From Candidatus Dojkabacteria bacterium (GTDB lineage: Bacteria; Patescibacteriota; Dojkabacteria; J137), in assembly GCA_020429545.1 (NCBI GenBank), contig JAGQLF010000001.1, forward strand, positions 1 through 36,646: a stretch of 36,646 bases of DNA, given 5' to 3'. Numbering within the stretch: the stretch's first letter is position 1; every line of letters starts with the position of its first letter. The position numbers and the translations under genes are program-made. The notes below the pieces were generated by a model. That model saw only the letters and a program-made list of their open reading frames with translations, did no database searches and had not been told where the DNA came from. Shown in pieces: positions 3,134-35,788 of the stretch.

Positions 3134-3718
3134 CTATAGTGTTGATAGAAGTTTTTTTATTATATCTTGTTCTGAAGCATCACTTATAAATAAGTTATCT
3201 AACTTAGTCAAGTTAGATACTATATCTCTCTCTTTATAACCCAGATTCTTTAGAGCCTCTTTAACATTCTCTACTTTGCTATTATCAAATGTTCCAGTTT
3301 GGCCTAATAGAGTTGCATCTGTTGGAGCTGGAACCTTATCTCTTAGCTCTATTATTATTTTTTCTGCCGTCTTAGCACCAACACTTGAGACTTTTAGCCC
3401 TTTTGCATCTCCATTATAAATTGATGAAACTACTTCGTTATAACCTTTTGAAGTAATTATGTTCAAGGCTGTTTTTGCACCTACTCCTGAAATTGAAAGT
3501 AGTTTTTTAAAAAGTGATAGCTCTTCTTGTGAAGTAAAACCCCATAAAGAAATATCATCTTCTCTAACATTTGTATGTATAAATAGTTCTATCTCTTGAT
3601 CTTCTTTAATTGCTCCTGTGTTCACCGCATTAACCTTCCACCCTACTCCATTTGACAGGATTATTAAACTTCCATCATCAAAAATTGTTTTTATTTTTCC
3701 ACTTAAAAATCCAATCAT
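3134..3718 (-). CDS. ruvA: Holliday junction DNA-binding protein RuvA
   Basis: Typical MIGFLSGKI N-terminus, two helix-hairpin-helix motifs (ISGVGAKTALNI, VGAKTAEKII) and a C-terminal domain III. GAGG lies 4 nt upstream of ATG 3718. The ORF track extends to 3763 through non-conserved residues. Confidence 0.88.
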   Translation of the reverse strand: MIGFLSGKIKTIFDDGSLIILSNGVGWKVNAVNTGAIKEDQEIELFIHTNVREDDISLWGFTSQEELSLFKKLLSISGVGAKTALNIITSKGYNEVVSSIYNGDAKGLKVSSVGAKTAEKIIIELRDKVPAPTDATLLGQTGTFDNSKVENVKEALKNLGYKERDIVSNLTKLDNLFISDASEQDIIKKLLSTL

Positions 3719-3830: not shown

Positions 3831-3972
3831 TAGGAAATCTTGCTTTATCAGCAGTATAGGCTTGTCAGTTCGAGTGAAATTTGCGATAGCAAATTTTGTA
3901 TCTAGAACTCACTTCTCGATACAATTCTACTTCTCCCGATAAATCGGGATCAGTAGAATCACTCGAAGTAAC
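3831..3972. repeat. structured intergenic repeat, family 1 (cloverleaf-like four-way junction), copy A
   Basis: P1 TTCGAGTG (3869-3876) / CACTCGAA (3960-3967) encloses hairpins 3877-3896, 3898-3922 and 3924-3959. A TAGGAAAT box lies 37 nt upstream. Confidence 0.75.
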
Positions 3973-4000
3973 ACAGCTAGGGACAGGAATTTATAATTTT

Positions 4001-4035
4001 GCTAGAAGCCCGTAGCTAGCAGCTAGTGGCTATTT
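4001..4035. repeat. 5 x 7-nt phased array (GCTAGAA GCCCGTA GCTAGCA GCTAGTG GCTATTT)
   Basis: GCTA or GCCC at 4001, 4008, 4015, 4022 and 4029. It contains the ruvC TAG stop (4023-4025) and shares the 13-mer GTAGCTAGCAGCT with array 756-790. Confidence 0.85.
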
Positions 4036-7310: not shown

Positions 7311-10300
7311 GTGAAAATTACAAATATTAGAAGAAGTAGACAACTACTGCTTTTTGTTTTTGTTGCACTTTTTGGGATTTTACTTATTATTCCCTTTGAA
7401 AAAGTAAATATAATCAATGCAGCAACATTAACTTGGGATGGTGGTGGTGGAGACAACAATTGGAGTACATGTGCAAACTGGACAACAGATACATGCCCAG
7501 GTACATTAGATACTGTTATATTTGATGGTACAAGCACAAAAGATGCTGCAATTGATGCAAGTTTTACTGGGATAGTAAGATATCTTACTATAAGTTCTGG
7601 CTACACTGGTACCATTACTGCTAATAGATCGATTACAGTAGTATTAAATTTTGGACAAGCAGATGGCATTTTTGATTTGACAGATCAAAGTGGAACTTTT
7701 ACAACTACAAATATAACCGGAGGCTTGTTCACCGCATCATCTACAGATACTACTTTCAAAGGTCCACTTACCATTGATAATTCTAGTTATTTTGATGCAA
7801 ATGGAGGTAATGTAATTCTAGCTCCGGCCAGTAATGTAACCTATACTTATACCTGTAATAATACCGTTTTCAATCAGGTAACAATTTCACCTGTTGCTGC
7901 AAATGCTACGCTAAATATGACTGATAGTTGTAATTTTCCTTTAGGTAGTAACCCAACAATTAGTTCATCTTCAACAATCAAAGTTTATGGAGACTTAAGT
8001 GGTACTGGTGAGTTGGGATGGCCAGCTGCTAATTTACAAATCTATTCAACTGGTACATTAACTGGATTTAGTGGCTATAACACTGGTGCTTTGAGGCTTA
8101 CTGGAAAGACACTAGATTGGTCAGGGGCAACTACCTTTGCTATGACTGGTAATCTAACTATTGAATCTAGTGGTGGTCTGACACTTCCCTTGCCTACCGG
8201 TACAATACAAATATACGATTTAACTGTATCAACTTCTAGTACTTTTACAGCTTCTTCTGGGACTATGAATGTAAGAGGCGATATCACCCTATCAAATGGT
8301 ACGACATTCGATTCAAATGGAGGAACCATTAATTTAAATCCAACAGGGAATGTATCTTACGATTGCTATAGTCATACATTTGATTTAATTACTATTAATC
8401 CTGTAAATAATAATATTGATCTTAATATAAACTCTACATGTAACTTTCCTCTTGGTGATAATCCAACAATAACTGGAACCAATGTCGATTTAAATTTAGA
8501 TGGGACACTTTCTGGTACAGGTACATTAACAGCCAGTGCCGATAATCTATTTGTAGTTTCCGGCAGTATACTGTCTGGGTTTGATGGCTTAGAAGTTAGC
8601 AGACTTTATATTAATGGAGCAAATCTAGACCTAAGTAGTTATTCAACCTTAATAACCAACAGTAATTTTGAATTGATTTCAGGAAGTTTTGTTGCACCAT
8701 CTGGAGAAATGGAGGTAAAAGCAAATTTCTACCATACTGCAGGAACTTTTACACATAATAGTGGAACTATTAATTTTTCTGGAACTGGGATTCAAACAAT
8801 AACTGGCTCAACGACTTTTAATAATTTTACAAAAGTAATGACTGCAGATGTATCAAGTAGTTTAAGATTTACAAGTAATACAACTCAAACTATCGAGGGA
8901 GATATGACATTGCATGGATACAGCGATAGTCAAAGATTGAATTTGATTGCAAGCAGCAATACTGTTCAGTGGAATATTGATCCACAAGGAACAAGAGATT
9001 TACAGTATCTAAGTGTTAAAGATTCAAATAATATAAATGCAAGTGTAATAGTACTTAGTGGTACTGGAAGCAACGATGCAGGAAATAATACTAATTACGA
9101 TTTTGCGAATAGTGCCCCAGATGCTCCTAATACCCTAGGACCTTCAGGATATGTGAATGGAAGTTCAGATACCGATACAACTCCCACATTGACATTTAAA
9201 ATATCAGATGTAGCAAATCCTTTAGATACTCTACGATTTAGAATTCAGATTTCAGATACCAATGACTTTTCTAATGTTTTAGTAGATTACACATCTGCCC
9301 TAGCAGCTGCTGGAAGTAAAACTTTTACTGTTGGGCAAGCAGTAGGTAGCGGAACATATAATGTGGGGTCAATTGGACAAACTTTAGATAGTGATAGCTA
9401 TTATTGGAGAGTTAAGACCATAGATAACAGTGCTGCGGAATCTGCTTATTCAACTGCAAATTCAGGGTCAATTGCGTTTATAGTAGCTGGGTATCCTAAC
9501 TTACCTTATGCTTTTGGACCTGCGAATAAAATCGATGGGTCAGACTCAACCGAAGGACAACCTAACCTTTATTTTACCTTAGATGATCCTAATGCAGGGG
9601 ATACTGTTAAATACCAAATACAAATTTCCTTAGCAAGTGATTTTTCTACACAAGTTGTAGATTACACATCTGATTTAAGAGCACAGGGTGTTTCTAATTT
9701 TACTGTTGGTCAAGCAGCTGGTAGTGGAAGCTATACAACTGGAAGTTCTGGACAATCACTAGGGAGTGGAAGCTACTACTGGAGAGTTAAAGCAATTGAC
9801 ATTAATAATGAAGAATCTGTATTTAAAGCTGCTTCATTTGGGGGAATTGCTTTTGTAGTATCAAATCCTCCAGATGCACCAACCAACCTAGGACCTAATT
9901 TGTTAATTACTGGGGGCTTATCTACAGATGATACACCTACATTCTCATTTGACTTATCCGATTCAGATGTAGGAGATACAGTAAAGTACAGAATTGATAT
10001 TTCCACAAATAGTGACTACTCTGCTCTAGCCGCCAGTTTTACTTCGGCACTTAGTGCTCAAGGTTCCGCTAGTTTTACTGTAGGACAGTCTTTAAACGGT
10101 GGATCATATTTTCATGGATCTGTTGGAATGGATCTAAATGATGGTGACTATTATTGGAGGGTTAAAGCAATAGATAGCAATGGTGTTGAAGGTACTTACA
10201 CACTAGCTAACGCTGGTGGAATTGCCTTTTCAGTTGGAGGTAATCCGCCAGATACACCTTCCTCTCCAGGTCCAGTAAATCTAATAAATGGTTCTGTAAT

Positions 10301-12170
10301 TCAACAGCAGCAGCCTAGCTTTACCTTTTATATTTCAGATCCAGATTTAGATCAAGTGAAATATAGGATACAAATTTCAAAACGTTCTTCTTTTAATCCC
10401 GTTTTAATAAACTACGAATCTGCATTTGGATCAATCGGAACTAAAACATTCACCGTTGGACAAGCTTCAAATGGAGGTACATATTACTCAGGTTCAGAAG
10501 GTCAGGTTTTAGCACCTGGTGATTATTATTGGAAGATAAGGGCAATTGATATATCTGAATTGGGTTCTCCGTATCTAATACCAAATGGAGCCAATGTTGC
10601 TTTCACGGTATCCAGTGATAATGCAAACTCAGACACTCCATTAGAATATGTACCTGAATTACCAGCAGAGGTAGTTGTAGAGGTAGAAGAAAGTACGTCA
10701 AATGAAGAATCTACAAGTTCTGGCTCTGGTTCATCTTCATCACAACCTACTATAAAATTGAATTTATCAGACTCAAACTCATCTCAACAACTCCAATTTC
10801 AAATTGAGATCGACAATGAATCAGACTATGAAGATCCAGAAGTAATTTATAAGTCCGGATTGATGGAACAAGGTGAGGCTAGTTTTGTTGTGGGTCAGAC
10901 AACTGGTGATGGCCAATATTTAAATGGTTCTGAAGGACAAATATTGGGAGCTGGCGATTATTATGTACGAGCAAAAACTATTGATGAAAAGAGTAATGAG
11001 TCCGAATATTTTTATATAAATAATGGTAGTGTTGCATTTATAATCACTCCATCGTCAGAGTTGGAAATTATTCCCCCTACTGAAATTTCTACTAACAATA
11101 ACCCAACCAGTCCTGGAAATGATAGCGAAGGAATAAATAACCTAAGTGATTTGCATGATGTCCAGATTGAGCAAAATGGCCTAAATGCTATAGGTGAAGA
11201 AAATTCACCAGGTGATGTTTCAGCATCAGCACAAGAAGTTTATGTAGAAACAAAAACACTTGCAAAAGCTTTTACTGAAACTATCAGTAAAGAACCTATA
11301 ACCATACCTTTAGCTGTAGTAGCTACCACAACTCTTGCTACTCTAATTGCGTATCCTAGAATAATTCTTTTGATGATTGTTGTAATTAAAAATATGTTTA
11401 GGAAAAAGAAACAATGGGGAATTGTTTATGATAAAAACACTCTATCTATAATACCATTGGCTACAATTAGGCTCTATTCTTCAGATAATAAATACTTAAG
11501 AGAGACAATCACTGATTTTAAGGGACAATATGGTTTTGTTGTAGACGCTGGTGATTATATACTCCAAATAAAGCACTCTGAGTATATAAGCACAAAAGAG
11601 AAAATTAGAATTGAGAAGGAAGAAGACTTGTTAACAAGCGACATTGAGCTAAATAAAAGTAACAAAAAAAGAATGTCCATCTTCAAAAAAATACAGAAGT
11701 CTATGCGAGAACGATTGCCTTCTATTTGGCAAGGATTATTCTTTATAGGGTTCGCAGTAGCTGTTATTTCATTTATAAATGCGAGTGAAGCACCCAATCT
11801 GTTTATATTACTTATGTTTGTTTTCTCAATAGCATTTTATACGTTTAGATCAATCATATTCGCTAGTCCATGGGGATATTTATATGATTTATCAGATAAT
11901 TCAAGAATATCTAGGGCAATAGTCCGAGTAATTAATACTAAAAATAATAAAGTCGAAGAAATAACGGTTACCGATGAAAAAGGTAGATTCCTAATTAAAA
12001 ATAAGAAAGGAAACTATAAACTAATGATTAGTTCAGATAAATACACTCTACCTGATTCAGAAAATCAAAACATTTCTATAAAAGAATTGAATAATTCAAG
12101 CCTAAAAATTGGATTAGAAAAATCTGCTGATACTTCTAAAAATAATGTAGCAAAATTTGGTGTGTTATAG
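7311..12170 (+). CDS. giant (1619 aa) repeat-rich cell-surface protein with C-terminal membrane-embedded module
   Basis: GTG start and an N-terminal signal/anchor helix. LTWDGGGGDNNWSTCANWT motif followed by a T/S/G/N-rich beta-helix-like region with ~172-aa modules. Five ~124-aa tandem beta-sandwich-like domains share P-D-A-P..LGP, KYRIQIS, FTVGQ and YYWRVKAID. An acidic/serine linker follows, then three TM helices interleaved with two CarboxypepD_reg-like segments (GIVYDKNT.., GYLYDLSD..). Confidence 0.85.
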   Translation: MKITNIRRSRQLLLFVFVALFGILLIIPFEKVNIINAATLTWDGGGGDNNWSTCANWTTDTCPGTLDTVIFDGTSTKDAAIDASFTGIVRYLTISSGYTGTITANRSITVVLNFGQADGIFDLTDQSGTFTTTNITGGLFTASSTDTTFKGPLTIDNSSYFDANGGNVILAPASNVTYTYTCNNTVFNQVTISPVAANATLNMTDSCNFPLGSNPTISSSSTIKVYGDLSGTGELGWPAANLQIYSTGTLTGFSGYNTGALRLTGKTLDWSGATTFAMTGNLTIESSGGLTLPLPTGTIQIYDLTVSTSSTFTASSGTMNVRGDITLSNGTTFDSNGGTINLNPTGNVSYDCYSHTFDLITINPVNNNIDLNINSTCNFPLGDNPTITGTNVDLNLDGTLSGTGTLTASADNLFVVSGSILSGFDGLEVSRLYINGANLDLSSYSTLITNSNFELISGSFVAPSGEMEVKANFYHTAGTFTHNSGTINFSGTGIQTITGSTTFNNFTKVMTADVSSSLRFTSNTTQTIEGDMTLHGYSDSQRLNLIASSNTVQWNIDPQGTRDLQYLSVKDSNNINASVIVLSGTGSNDAGNNTNYDFANSAPDAPNTLGPSGYVNGSSDTDTTPTLTFKISDVANPLDTLRFRIQISDTNDFSNVLVDYTSALAAAGSKTFTVGQAVGSGTYNVGSIGQTLDSDSYYWRVKTIDNSAAESAYSTANSGSIAFIVAGYPNLPYAFGPANKIDGSDSTEGQPNLYFTLDDPNAGDTVKYQIQISLASDFSTQVVDYTSDLRAQGVSNFTVGQAAGSGSYTTGSSGQSLGSGSYYWRVKAIDINNEESVFKAASFGGIAFVVSNPPDAPTNLGPNLLITGGLSTDDTPTFSFDLSDSDVGDTVKYRIDISTNSDYSALAASFTSALSAQGSASFTVGQSLNGGSYFHGSVGMDLNDGDYYWRVKAIDSNGVEGTYTLANAGGIAFSVGGNPPDTPSSPGPVNLINGSVIQQQQPSFTFYISDPDLDQVKYRIQISKRSSFNPVLINYESAFGSIGTKTFTVGQASNGGTYYSGSEGQVLAPGDYYWKIRAIDISELGSPYLIPNGANVAFTVSSDNANSDTPLEYVPELPAEVVVEVEESTSNEESTSSGSGSSSSQPTIKLNLSDSNSSQQLQFQIEIDNESDYEDPEVIYKSGLMEQGEASFVVGQTTGDGQYLNGSEGQILGAGDYYVRAKTIDEKSNESEYFYINNGSVAFIITPSSELEIIPPTEISTNNNPTSPGNDSEGINNLSDLHDVQIEQNGLNAIGEENSPGDVSASAQEVYVETKTLAKAFTETISKEPITIPLAVVATTTLATLIAYPRIILLMIVVIKNMFRKKKQWGIVYDKNTLSIIPLATIRLYSSDNKYLRETITDFKGQYGFVVDAGDYILQIKHSEYISTKEKIRIEKEEDLLTSDIELNKSNKKRMSIFKKIQKSMRERLPSIWQGLFFIGFAVAVISFINASEAPNLFILLMFVFSIAFYTFRSIIFASPWGYLYDLSDNSRISRAIVRVINTKNNKVEEITVTDEKGRFLIKNKKGNYKLMISSDKYTLPDSENQNISIKELNNSSLKIGLEKSADTSKNNVAKFGVL
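7791..8822 (+). repeat. internal ~516-nt (172-aa) module repeat in the N-terminal beta-helix-like region of the giant protein
   Basis: FDANGGNVILAPASNVTYTYTCNNTVFNQVTISP..CNFPLGSNPTI..LSGTGEL (from 7791) is paralleled by FDSNGGTINLNPTGNVSYDCYSHTFDLITINP..CNFPLGDNPTI..LSGTGTL (from 8307). A third partial module starts near 8750 (HNSGTINFSGTG). Confidence 0.7.
9111..11046 (+). repeat. five tandem ~372-375-nt (124-125 aa) domain repeats inside the giant protein
   Basis: Units start at about 9111, 9489, 9861, 10236 and, after a ~130-nt acidic/Ser linker, 10743. Protein motifs are conserved but the DNA has diverged, so the duplication is old. Confidence 0.85.
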
Positions 12171-19085: not shown

Positions 19086-19167
19086 TTGATTTGACTAAAA
19101 GCATTTTTCTAAAATATATTTTATTAAATTTATAATCTCTCTATTTGTTATCTTTTTTGATAAAAAA

Positions 19168-19202
19168 GCTAACTGCTAAAAGCTAGTTGCTAATAGCTAA
19201 AA
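19168..19202. repeat. 5 x 7-nt phased array (GCTAACT GCTAAAA GCTAGTT GCTAATA GCTAAAA)
   Basis: GCTA at 19168, 19175, 19182, 19189 and 19196. In mRNA sense it reads UUUUAGC UAUUAGC AACUAGC UUUUAGC AGUUAGC. The first UAG is the ssb stop codon. Confidence 0.9.
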
Positions 19203-20075: not shown

Positions 20076-20220
20076 TAGGAAATGGAACTGGCTATATTAC
20101 ATATGGTATGTAAGTTCGAGTGGCATAAATTTGACGAAGTCATAATTTATGATGTATCGAGAACTATACTATACATACTTCTCGATACAATCCTGATAAA
20201 TCAGGATCGCTCGAAGTGAC
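20076..20220. repeat. structured intergenic repeat, family 1 (cloverleaf-like four-way junction), copy B
   Basis: P1 TTCGAGTG/CGCTCGAA encloses three hairpins (20124-20151, 20154-20188, 20190-20207). It shares the upstream TAGGAAAT box at the same spacing as copy A. Confidence 0.75.
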
Positions 20221-34855: not shown

Positions 34856-34897
34856 AGTAAATAGTAATTAGTGTTGAGTATTGAGTAATTAGTTACT
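34856..34897. repeat. 6 x 7-nt phased array (AGTAAAT AGTAATT AGTGTTG AGTATTG AGTAATT AGTTACT)
   Basis: AGT at 34856, 34863, 34870, 34877, 34884 and 34891. Starts 10 nt from the MreB-like start codon. Confidence 0.85.
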
Positions 34898-34908
34898 ATA
34901 GTCTTGAA

Positions 34909-34943
34909 CACTAAATGCTCAGTACTAATTACTGGCTACTTTT
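34909..34943. repeat. 5 x 7-nt phased array (CACTAAA TGCTCAG TACTAAT TACTGGC TACTTTT), complementary type
   Basis: RCT at 34910, 34917, 34924, 34931 and 34938. ACTAATTACT (34924-34933) is the exact complement of AGTAATTAGT (34884-34893). Confidence 0.85.
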
Positions 34944-34990
34944 ACAAATTATATATGAAGATGTCTATATGAGGTAGTAATTTAAAAATA

Positions 34991-35063
34991 AGCTGAAACT
35001 GGGAATTGAACCCAGGACCTCACCCTTACCATGGGTGCGCTCTACCATCTGAGCTATTCCAGC
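34991..35063 (-). tRNA. tRNA-Thr (anticodon GGU)
   Basis: Minus strand: GCTGGAA TA GCTC AGATGGTA GAGC G CACCC ATGGTAA GGGTG AGGTC CTGGG TTCAATT CCCAG TTTCAGC + discriminator T. Cloverleaf with one G:U in the acceptor. CCA is not encoded. Confidence 0.9.
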
Positions 35064-35195
35064 ACTTACTTAAATTAACTTGTCAATTTAGTCTCGCCGA
35101 AGCTTAAGCGAAGGCGGACTATTCCAGCATTTATTACGAGTTAAAATTGTCAACTTAGTCTCGCCGTAGCTTCAGCGAAGGCGGGCTATTCCAGC
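35064..35195 (-). repeat. two tandem 66-nt units, each starting (minus sense) with the tRNA-Thr 5' decamer GCTGGAATAG followed by a GC-rich hairpin
   Basis: Units are 35064-35129 and 35130-35195. The hairpin is TAGTC-T-CGCC / GGCG-GACTA with loop GAAGCTTAAGCGAA or GTAGCTTCAGCGAA. They lie directly upstream of tRNA-Thr(GGU). Confidence 0.85.
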
Positions 35196-35254
35196 TTTTA
35201 TGAATCTGGAAGATTATACAATATTAGATCTTTTGAATGTGAGAATAAAAAATA

Positions 35255-35337
35255 TCCGGAGAGAAGGATTTGAACCTCCGTAGTCCTGGGACGCCTGATT
35301 TACAGTCAGGTGCGATTGACCGCTCCGCCATCTCCGG
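35255..35337 (-). tRNA. tRNA-Tyr (anticodon GUA), class II, with C1:G72
   Basis: Minus strand: CCGGAGA TG GCG GAGCGGTCAAT CGC A CCTGA CTGTAAA TCAGG CGTCCCAGGACTAC GGAGG TTCAAAT CCTTC TCTCCGG A. U8 and U33 are in register. 83 nt. CCA is not encoded. Confidence 0.85.
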
Positions 35338-35342
35338 AAACA

Positions 35343-35420
35343 AGTACCAAGTACTGAGTTTTTAGTACTTAGTTATTTTATTAATTTCTAAGTACTCAGT
35401 ACTAATTACTAAAAACTGAA
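35343..35420. repeat. inverted pair of 5 x 7-nt arrays forming a long hairpin between tRNA-Thr(UGU) and tRNA-Tyr
   Basis: Left arm: AGT at 35343/50/57/64/71. Right arm: (A/T)CT at 35387/94/401/408/415. AGTACTTAG (35364-35372) pairs with CTAAGTACT (35388-35396). AGTACTG (35350-35356) pairs with CAGTACT (35397-35403). Confidence 0.85.
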
Positions 35421-35424
35421 CTGG

Positions 35425-35497
35425 AGCTGGAACTGGGACTCGAACCCAGGACCGACTGTTTACAAAACAGTTGCTCTACCAACTGAGCTATTCCAGC
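35425..35497 (-). tRNA. tRNA-Thr (anticodon UGU)
   Basis: Minus strand: GCTGGAA TA GCTC AGTTGGTA GAGC A ACTGT TTTGTAA ACAGT CGGTC CTGGG TTCGAGT CCCAG TTCCAGC + T. Perfect acceptor stem. Confidence 0.92.
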
Positions 35498-35562
35498 AAT
35501 CTAATTGTTAAATCTACGTTTTTCCTTTCTGTTTATCACTTAAAAAACCAACTGCTCAATAA

Positions 35563-35604
35563 GGTCATCATTTTATAAACGTAGTGCAATAAAATGATTT
35601 GACC
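35563..35604. other. long AT-rich hairpin (9 bp + 2-nt bulge + 5 bp)
   Basis: GGTCATCATTTTAT-aaacgtagtgca-ATAAAATGATTTGACC. Located between the tRNA-Thr fragment and tRNA-Thr(UGU). Confidence 0.6.
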
Positions 35605-35607
35605 GCA

Positions 35608-35706
35608 TTAGTCCCGACAATGTCGGGGAGCTATTCCAGCACTTACTTAAATTAACTTGTCAATTTAGTCTCGCCGTAGCTTCAGCGAAGGCGGACTATT
35701 CCAGCA
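35608..35706 (-). repeat. 13-nt tRNA-Thr 5' fragment fused to a hairpin, plus a third 66-nt GCTGGAATAG-hairpin unit
   Basis: 35628-35676 is identical over 49 nt to 35051-35099, i.e. the first 13 nt of tRNA-Thr(GGU) plus its upstream flank. About 80 nt aligns with 2 mismatches. The tRNA body is replaced by TCCCCGAC-att-GTCGGGA. Confidence 0.85.
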
Positions 35707-35717
35707 TAACTGTATCG

Positions 35718-35788
35718 AGTAATGAATTTTTAGTACTTAGTTATTTTGTTAACTTCTAAGTACTCAGTACTAACTACTCTGTACTAAT
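35718..35788. repeat. second copy of the AGTACT-word hairpin (4 + 5 heptamer units)
   Basis: 35727-35778 is near-identical to 35359-35410 (TTTTTAGTACTTAGTTATTTTrTTAAyTTCTAAGTACTCAGTACTAAyTACT). The right arm has (A/T)CT at 35755/62/69/76/83. Confidence 0.85.

Follow-up and report, generated by a model that had tools for sequence, protein, structure and literature searches.

A dispersed four-way-junction DNA element in a Candidatus Dojkabacteria genome and its association with a GIY-YIG nuclease gene

Two spacers of a Candidatus Dojkabacteria genome, between ruvC and ruvA and between recR and rpsF, contained one copy each (copies A and B) of a DNA-level repeat family that has a coding parent and gene-less miniatures and that inserts after genes. 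Both copies lie within a 36,646-nt stretch (assembly GCA_020429545.1, contig JAGQLF010000001.1), which is called the window throughout. We consider it likely that copies A and B belong to a selfish palindromic element that acts at the DNA level, and that they are non-autonomous copies of it, lacking the ORF and already in decay. This selfish element is apparently undescribed.

Structure and boundaries of the two window copies

The window copies were 109-111 nt long and had a perfect four-way junction in common. All flanking genes were on the minus strand, in the orders yebC-ruvC-(copy A)-ruvA-ruvB and dnaX-ybaB-recR-(copy B)-rpsF-ssb, and the ruvC-ruvA spacer with copy A was present in three independent assemblies. 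The features of both spacers are given below, with the coordinates of copy A on the strand carrying GTCAG...GTAAC.

3831 to 3838, plus strand: TAGGAAAT box beside copy A, native spacer outside the element
3864 to 3972, plus strand: copy A, a complete element without an ORF, between ruvC and ruvA and antisense to these genes; covariance-model score 75.8 bits on the plus strand and 61.6 bits on the minus strand
3864 to 3876, plus strand: 5' arm of P1 of copy A, GTCA-G-TTCGAGTG
3877 to 3896, plus strand: P2 hairpin of copy A, AAATTTGC gata GCAAATTT
3897 to 3923, plus strand: P3 of copy A, T-GTATCTAGAA, loop CTCAC, TTCTCGATAC-A; in full-length members the nuclease ORF lies in this loop
3924 to 3959, plus strand: P4 of copy A, a long hairpin, ATTCTACT..TCCCGA taaa TCGGGA..AGTAGAAT
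3960 to 3972, plus strand: 3' arm of P1 of copy A, CACTCGAA-G-TAAC
3993 to 4008, minus strand: possible relic of an older insertion, CTTCTAGCAAAATTAT, which aligns weakly and by eye with CTTCGAGTGAAATTAT (P1 arm and the beginning of P2) at the corresponding position of the sister genome L121
20046 to 20074, minus strand: rpsF promoter, TTTACA-17-TATAAT, next to the TAGGAAAT box of copy B
20076 to 20083, plus strand: TAGGAAAT box beside copy B, outside the element
20110 to 20220, plus strand: copy B, complete ORF-less element in the recR-rpsF spacer, with its end 5 nt from the recR stop codon; covariance-model score 86.2 bits
20123 to 20152, plus strand: P2 hairpin of copy B, CATAAATTTGAC gaa GTCAtAATTTATG
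20153 to 20189, plus strand: P3 of copy B, T-GTATCGAGAA, 15-nt loop, TTCTCGATAC-A
20190 to 20207, plus strand: P4 hairpin of copy B, ATCCTGA taaa TCAGGAT

The original prediction, made from the letters of the window, had described two copies at these places, each with an outer stem P1 around three hairpins, and this was confirmed in the sequence and by folding. The TAGGAAAT box was found at 3831 and 20076, with GTTCGAGTG 37 and 38 nt further on, and both copies ended in CTCGAAGT(A/G)AC. The P2 arms of A and B were as predicted, the T.G pair was present in P1 of copy B, and P4 carried the compensatory change from TCCCGA/TCGGGA in A to TCCTGA/TCAGGA in B. The P3 loops were also of the predicted 5 nt (A) and 15 nt (B), but the stem was not fully kept, as the 5' arm of copy A (GTATCTAGAA) has one mismatch. 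Similarly, the 3' ends of the predicted element held, whereas its starts moved inward to 3864 and 20110, and P1 was longer than predicted (GTCA-G-TTCGAGTG / CACTCGAA-G-TGAC). The copies had also been called GC-rich; their GC content (0.36-0.38) was barely higher than that of the window (0.33).

The TAGGAAAT box had been counted as a part of the element, and this part of the description was not retained. The 33 nt from the box to P1 were native spacer, the box was not conserved in about 150 family flanks, and it occurred three times in the window, against 3.1 occurrences expected. In addition, the box beside copy B lies immediately next to the -35 hexamer of the rpsF promoter, and the window segment ATTTCCTA, which contains the box, aligns with ATTTATTA in a relative with an empty site. 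The box thus has a counterpart in the empty site, indicating that it belongs to the native spacer and not to the element.

Both copies folded far more stably than expected from their composition. With RNA parameters, the minimum free energy was -43 to -54 kcal/mol (z -6.1 to -7.2) on either strand, and with DNA parameters it was -27 to -30 kcal/mol (z -7.3 to -9.2); none of the shuffled sequences equalled the copies with either set of parameters. A covariance-model search with filters off identified A and B as the only copies in the window, the next match (14.9 bits) overlapping a tRNA. No tRNA was identified at copies A and B by ARAGORN, and no intrinsic terminator consisting of a hairpin and a T-run was found in the ruvC-ruvA and recR-rpsF spacers.

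Comparison with the wider family described below showed that each window copy was mutated at two invariant positions. Copy A has GTAAC at the 3' end of P1 (GTGAC in the family) and GTATCTAGAA in the 5' arm of P3 (GTATCGAGAA in the family), and retains G3868 opposite G3968, a conserved G.G mismatch of the family. Copy B has GTAAG for GTCAG and CGCTCGAA for CACTCGAA. Since these two substitutions in each copy fall at positions that are more than 95% conserved, the window copies look like decaying relics.

The family in Flavobacteriia and its nuclease gene

A scan of one genome per species with the pattern GTTCGAGTG N30-60 TCGATAC N10-40 CTCGAAGT identified at least 117 stretches with 153 pattern matches among them, and the covariance model (with a shortened calibration and rough E-values) added further matches. 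The further copies anticipated by the original prediction thus exist outside the window, in a large family in Flavobacteriia. All but one of the matches listed were from Bacteroidota, mostly Flavobacteriaceae, including Winogradskyella, Tenacibaculum, Olleya, Polaribacter, and Chryseobacterium; the taxonomic range and copy numbers from the pattern scan are lower bounds. The lone exception among the matches listed, in a Terriglobales metagenome-assembled genome (L069), lacked the canonical 5' arm of P3 and is likely a chance match. Copies were often found in arrays, with up to seven per 8 kb among the matches listed, and the arrays of two loci (L034 and L016) duplicated the whole unit together with its spacer.

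The consensus of the 153 matches was nGTCA-G-TTCGAGTG, P2, T-GTATCGAGAA-C, loop, C-TTCTCGATAC-A, P4, and CACTCGAA-G-TGACn, and no conservation was found in their flanks outside these ends. The terminal inverted repeats, GTCAGTTCGAGTG and CACTCGAAGTGAC, were 13 nt long with one conserved mismatch. In 22 diverse copies, 95.7% of the cells were paired, compared with 81.7% in shuffles and 32-43% for slid partners. The sequences of P1 and P3 were near-invariant in these copies, and all 14 scored pairs of P2 and P4 varied on both sides. RNAalifold returned the same four helices with the two 'linker' bases paired too, so that the junction has no unpaired nucleotide. The pairing of the 22 sequences and the RNAalifold result support the prediction of a dispersed family built on a single conserved plan of four helices, in which compensatory changes are numerous.

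Two further features were fixed in the family. Four TCGAG boxes lie in a fixed arrangement on the invariant arms of P1 and P3, 2-3 bp from the branch point. In addition, 40 of 49 solo copies had linked mismatches, namely C.C in P1 combined with G.G at the top of P3, or the corresponding arrangement read on the reverse strand; these copies were collected again with a pattern that left the four mismatch positions free, as the pattern of the original scan fixed the G.G form. The linked mismatches imply that the two ends of the element differ in a fixed way, and by analogy this may be compared with elements that are recognised as folded single strands.

The ORFs of the family loci, called by a simple in-house procedure, were compared by all-against-all BLAST (1,324 ORFs from the 117 loci listed). 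The only recurrent family tied to the element was a GIY-YIG nuclease of approximately 97 aa. No transposase family, including TnpA Y1 HUH or IS200-IS605-type ORFs, recurred in this set, in agreement with the prediction that no transposase lies alongside. Among the matches listed, 11 of 13 GIY-YIG genes were located 20-150 nt from an element, and some copies of the gene were pseudogenes.

The nuclease is a minimal stand-alone domain of 97 aa without a separate DNA-binding domain. It matched Pfam PF01541 (E 2e-18, 67 bits) and the UPF0213 proteins of PDB entries 1zg2 (E 6e-13) and 1ywl, which represent the prokaryotic stand-alone part of the Slx1 cluster (Dunin-Horkawicz et al., PMC1564403). Residues Y7, Y16/Y17, R27, H31, and E65 were invariant in 40 homologues. 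The AlphaFold model (pLDDT 83) was most similar to UPF0213 (1zg2, 1ywl), followed by the Slx1 nuclease domains 6seh, 7cq2, 7cq4, and 4xlg (probability 0.97-1.0, rmsd about 3 A), and UvrC and I-TevI ranked lower. By sequence and predicted fold, the associated protein is a member of the Slx1/UPF0213 branch of the GIY-YIG superfamily. Its clade comprises more than 7,600 sequence clusters; there was no NCBIfam or PADLOC match that would give the nuclease a curated family or defence-system name, and database records name it just 'GIY-YIG nuclease family protein'.

A metagenome scan with the protein alignment as query recovered 80 GIY-YIG loci with flanks of up to 2.5 kb, and covariance-model matches were present in 58 of them. 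Elements crowd near the gene, with 115 of 168 located within 250 nt of it, because the ORF sits inside the P3 loop. In the 78 loci with enough flank, the 5' arm of P3 was open and ended 10-41 nt before the ATG (mode 15-19) in 52, the 3' arm of P3 followed 0-40 nt past the stop codon in 51, and both arms surrounded the ORF in 41. In these 41 loci, P2 and P1a lay beyond one P3 arm, and P4 and P1b lay beyond the other. The resulting unit of approximately 430 nt reads GTCA-x-TTCGAGTG, P2, T-GTATCGAGAA-y, about 17 nt, the 97-aa ORF, 0-10 nt, y-TTCTCGATAC-A, P4, and CACTCGAA-x-TGAC, and sixteen full units were read out in sequence. The longer unit with the same P1, P2, P3, and P4 encodes a GIY-YIG nuclease, a family for which no transposase activity is known. 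Moreover, P2 and P4 of solo copies were at least 91% identical to those of ORF-bearing copies in other loci (e.g., L108/L127 and L020/L204). The position of the ORF within the P3 loop and the P2 and P4 sequences common to both forms indicate that the cloverleaf of approximately 100-110 nt is an ORF-less miniature of the 430-nt unit.

The arrangement of the ORF was not uniform. Its orientation relative to the G/C mismatch asymmetry was one way in 17 cases and the other way in six, and in a few loci (e.g., L119) the ORF lay beside a complete element and not within it. The ORF-bearing unit had no blastn match in phage and plasmid collections. A phage or plasmid vector was rejected, as the single pattern match in a viral contig (L126) was a GC-rich chance match.

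The position of the gene also allows an account in which the nuclease does not move the repeat. The repeat would spread by another route, and the GIY-YIG gene would be a parasite resembling a homing endonuclease, which cuts the compact P3 palindrome of ORF-less copies and is copied into the loop during repair, thereby splitting its own target and protecting that copy. An ORF exactly central in the P3 palindrome follows the classic logic of a homing endonuclease gene, and the P2 and P4 sequences common to ORF-bearing and solo copies, the excess of solo copies over genes of more than 10:1 (153 pattern matches and 13 genes, among the matches listed), and the pseudogenes would fit this account as well. 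However, P1 varies as little as P3, so that some protein should recognise it, and apart from the nuclease none recurs in the vicinity. Additionally, the nuclease has no DNA-binding domain of its own and is closer to Slx1 than to I-TevI, the homology arms would be only about 45 nt long and variable, and the ORF of L119 lies outside a complete element. We regard homing into a repeat that spreads otherwise as unlikely, but as the strongest of the alternatives.

Constraint on DNA and evidence of mobility

A stable and covarying fold in the spacers of operons could also represent a functional structured RNA, i.e., a four-way-junction cis element or a small RNA made from the spacers, with a role, for instance, in the stability or processing of mRNA 3' ends. 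Copies are indeed found just past stop codons, often by 5-20 nt, and are enriched between convergent genes, and copies A and B would be transcribed together with the operons in which they lie. On the other hand, the copies showed no orientation bias relative to the flanking ORFs: 36 were in the same direction (>E>) and 34 in the opposite direction (<E<), with 37 between convergent (>E<) and 12 between divergent (<E>) genes. In 110 distinct copies, G-U and A-C mispairs were equally rare (59 and 61), and the covariance model matched either strand of the element. In the L119 subfamily the P3 loop is 1 nt long, so this P3 is a duplex palindrome that cannot form a hairpin. The lack of a U-tract terminator in either window spacer, the nuclease ORF in the loop, the tandem arrays, and the presence or absence of copy B between genomes also stand against a functional RNA.

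The Rfam 15 covariance models (including tRNA-like RNAs, ribozymes, and Flavo-1) gave no match overlapping the copies in the window, either at the gathering thresholds or at E <=10, and none overlapping the canonical copies of eight further loci at E <=1, where no intron model matched either. The original prediction had recognised no RNA family in the element, which agrees with this comparison; its reading of the element as a structured RNA was not supported. Taken together, the orientation, the location past stop codons, and the mispair, both-strand, loop, and terminator results argue against a strand-specific RNA and favour constraint on DNA, and a functional RNA appears quite improbable to us. 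Copies A and B are probably transcribed just passively, within the ruvC-ruvA and recR-rpsF spacers.

Even less credible is a role of the folded transcript as an RNA that works with the nuclease, comparable to the omega RNA of IscB or TnpB, with the solo copies as orphan RNA genes. Structured halves surround a small nuclease ORF, one transcript would hold both, and the sequence of the P3 loop is variable. Yet the protein is a minimal 97-aa GIY-YIG domain without a known RNA-binding module, the variable parts are self-paired hairpins and not free guide segments, the orientation of the ORF relative to the asymmetry is not fixed, and wobble pairs show no strand bias. We consider it equally remote that the repeat is a site in host DNA that has been domesticated, for instance as a set of binding sites for a recombination protein, gyrase, or a nucleoid protein, and that it is maintained by selection and multiplied by duplication without active mobility: the fixed TCGAG boxes, the duplicated units with spacers in L034 and L016, and the proximity of the window copies to ruvC/ruvA and recR would suit it, but the same sequence occurs in two phyla, orthologous sites differ in its presence, the window copies are mutated at invariant positions, and the repeat is tied to a private nuclease gene among neighbouring genes that are otherwise mutually unrelated.

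The window was also compared with related Dojkabacteria. Its RuvB and RecR proteins were identical to NCBI proteins of Candidatus Dojkabacteria bacterium, and their nearest relatives bear this name too. The sister genome GCA_020429495.1 (L207), whose RecR and RuvB were 90% and 93% identical to those of the window, has a 93-nt recR-rpsF spacer without copy B; the alignment nevertheless covers the end of recR, the spacer, and the rpsF promoter. The absence of copy B from this aligned spacer indicates a recent insertion 0-5 nt past the recR stop codon. No clear duplication was found on comparing the filled and empty sites of copy B. The ruvC-ruvA spacer of the sister genome (L121) contained a degenerate copy (43 bits) that was inverted relative to the genes, and an older relic arm next to the ruvC-ruvA copy was seemingly common to the window and the sister genome. 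A simple inversion was considered for the flipped copy and rejected, as it does not give the arrangement seen. The element was absent from the ruvC-ruvA spacers (100, 60, and 16 nt) of three relatives with RuvB 78-83% identical (L123, L124, and L125), and no GIY-YIG gene was found in the approximately 130 kb of Dojkabacteria sequence examined. As the window is from a genome of Candidatus Dojkabacteria (CPR), the element has crossed phyla. Copies A and B are probably inert relics in this genome, derived from a cross-phylum acquisition from Flavobacteriia.

Across the family, no direct repeat was found at the ends of 126 of 147 copies, and the repeats of the others (2-6 nt) corresponded to chance expectation. 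No target motif for insertion was found. Insertion into hairpin loops was considered as a rule and rejected, with complementary flanks in about 10 of 147 copies compared with 1.5 expected; these copies are a minority nested in other palindromic repeats.

Proposed mechanism, related systems, and implications

The route by which the element moves can be proposed from its sequence features. Its working form may be a folded single-stranded or cruciform DNA, a perfect four-way junction without unpaired bases at the junction, whose invariant P1 and P3 arms would be the features recognised by the structure-selective, Slx1-like nuclease that the element encodes. The two strands could be distinguished by the paired G.G and C.C mismatches. 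Loss of the ORF from the P3 loop would give the cloverleaf of approximately 100-110 nt as in the window, and the nuclease may act in trans on such solo copies, resulting in MITE-like behaviour. Slx1 cleaves Holliday junctions and other branched DNA close to the branch point (PMC6902002). Any move of the element would also involve the joining of strands. To our knowledge, GIY-YIG enzymes hydrolyse DNA, and neither strand joining nor transposase activity is known for them; host repair or replication must therefore complete any move. Two models can be considered for the part of the nuclease: it may mobilise the element in the fashion of a transposase and its MITEs, or it may enter the P3 palindrome by homing while the repeat itself spreads by other means.

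Among known systems, the closest analogues are MITE/IS pairs and the REP/RAYT 'REPtrons', and the element misses defining features of both. Like MITEs, it is short (less than about 500 bp), non-coding, multi-copy, and intergenic, has 13-nt terminal inverted repeats, appears as an internal-deletion derivative of a longer coding unit with the same ends, and shows presence/absence polymorphism. Unlike MITEs, it has no target-site duplication that we could find, its parent encodes a 97-aa GIY-YIG nuclease and not a DDE, HUH, serine, or tyrosine transposase, and it is a four-way junction with an inner palindrome (P3) and two covarying hairpins instead of a simple hairpin. The original prediction had named a known MITE with inverted ends and target-site duplications as the contrary case; of this, the 13-nt inverted ends and a coding parent were found, whereas target-site duplication and identity with a known MITE were not. 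The MITE of Cardinium was considered and rejected, as it is derived from IS982 and unrelated.

REPs and their REPtrons resemble the element in forming clustered extragenic palindromes after genes, with an embedded small nuclease gene and conserved stem mismatches. However, REPs are single hairpins of 20-40 nt with a GTAG motif, whereas the element is approximately 100 nt long with four helices, and the RAYT is an HUH Y1 protein flanked by inverted REPs, whereas the GIY-YIG gene lies inside the central loop of the element itself. The IS200/IS605 family also has folded-DNA hairpins near its ends, no target-site duplication, and stem mismatches that mark the strand, but it lacks terminal inverted repeats, and its TnpA Y1 HUH enzyme forms a covalent intermediate, a chemistry beyond GIY-YIG enzymes. 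Integron attC sites similarly conserve structure over sequence, act as folded single-strand substrates with unpaired bases marking the strand, and occur in arrays; they differ in being single imperfect hairpins that are used by a tyrosine integrase and separate gene cassettes, none of which was seen here.

With respect to the protein, GIY-YIG homing endonucleases (I-TevI, Seg) likewise have a gene in the middle of a possible target of their own, within a structured element. In contrast to the I-TevI type, no intron and no NUMOD or helix-turn-helix domain was present here, the fold is nearer to Slx1/UPF0213, and the host is a dispersed repeat and not a conserved gene. The Slx1/UPF0213 proteins (YhbQ, BH0048, and EF2693) are the nearest relatives by sequence and fold, and the element is predicted to fold into a branched substrate of the Slx1 type. 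We know of no member of this branch that is linked with a repeat family or with mobility. In the full-text literature searched, no earlier description linking GIY-YIG/UPF0213 genes to such repeats was found; other literature may hold one.

We tentatively propose, as a possibility that falls short of an even chance, that these observations reflect an undescribed class of mobile element. In such a class, a minimal GIY-YIG nuclease of the Slx1 type would be encoded in a loop of a cloverleaf of DNA that resembles a Holliday junction. The nuclease would recognise this junction in its folded form, the strand being marked by the G.G and C.C mismatches, and would thereby drive the spread of the coding unit and of the far commoner ORF-less miniatures alike. 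The element would have jumped from Flavobacteriia to Dojkabacteria, which may reflect a physical link between host and symbiont.

If the link between nuclease and element holds, GIY-YIG enzymes of the Slx1-like branch would be added to the few kinds of enzyme that drive small mobile elements in bacteria, and the large, unstudied UPF0213/YhbQ-type group would gain its first concrete biological context. The element may also serve as a natural, sequence-defined four-way-junction candidate substrate for a minimal structure-selective nuclease, the specificity of which is testable with oligonucleotides. In addition, the link would explain a very abundant intergenic repeat of marine Flavobacteriia, which may confuse assembly or pass for a structured RNA. 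The presence of the element in a Candidatus Dojkabacteria genome, with one insertion that postdates the split from the sister genome, provides a rare trace of recent movement of DNA between Bacteroidota and a CPR lineage.

The ruvC-ruvA spacer as a possible repeated insertion target

Beside the complete copy of the cloverleaf element in the ruvC-ruvA spacer (copy A), a further short segment resembles part of the element:

Window 3993-4008, minus strand: candidate relic P1 arm and P2 start, aligned with 3326-3341 of the sister Dojkabacteria spacer (L121)

In this alignment, CTTCTAGCAAAATTAT, located directly 3' of the ruvC stop codon in the window, corresponds to CTTCGAGTGAAATTAT of the sister genome. 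Judged from the aligned sequences, the segment looks like the remnant P1 arm and beginning of P2 of an earlier insertion at the same site, and because this relic-like arm occupies the same spot, the spacer may be a target that has been hit repeatedly. The complete copy A has opposite orientations in the window and in the sister genome, and a simple inversion fails to account for the observed arrangement.

Other repeats in the window

Additional repeats of the window were located as follows:

755-781, 4006-4032 and 19166-19192: GCTAG/AGCTA-rich short repeats (AAGCTAGTAGCTAGCAGCT...), directly 3' of stop codons of minus-strand genes
35051-35130, 35118-35197 and 35628-35707: 80-nt repeats, upstream of a tRNA-Thr/Tyr/Thr cluster
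7311-12170, plus strand: 1,619-aa ORF

The GCTAG/AGCTA-rich repeats may represent a lineage-specific terminator or a different small repeat family. Every 80-nt repeat combines a TTGACA box and a GC-rich hairpin with a copy of the tRNA 5' end (GCTGGAATAG); these repeats resemble tRNA promoter units that have been duplicated, or tRNA fragments. GTACT/AGTAC-rich simple repeats were also present close by (34856-35785). Within the 1,619-aa ORF, a 375-nt (125-aa) unit occurs four times in tandem, at about 9323-10551. The ORF had no match in an NCBIfam search, and in this CPR bacterium it probably encodes a surface protein.

Associated nuclease clade and nested repeats

A second, more typical GIY-YIG gene (COG2827-like, MSKWYIYIM...) was identified at 1510-1797 of the scanned locus L019, not adjoining any element; association with the element seems confined to the GIY-YIG clade whose proteins carry KKWSRAKKEALI..LPNLAKKKF as their C-terminal tail. 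Some Flavobacteriia have a further inverted repeat, larger and itself multi-copy (e.g., aacccgttgggtgaaatt ... aatttcacccaacgggtt), that is centred on the cloverleaf:

L008 2190-2389, L050, L017, L077, L089; L043; L081; L063/L084/L066: loci with the cloverleaf in a larger repeat

These larger units are nested palindromic repeats of a separate family.

Origin of the carrier genomes

The Flavobacteriaceae carrier L080 (JAGQZO01, Winogradskyella MAG HKST-UBA93) and the sister Dojkabacteria loci L121/L207 (JAGQLJ01, MAG GCA_020429495.1) may derive from a common study and habitat, since their accession prefixes form one series. Such a common origin, if true, would be consistent with a recent transfer of DNA or with the two being linked as host and symbiont.
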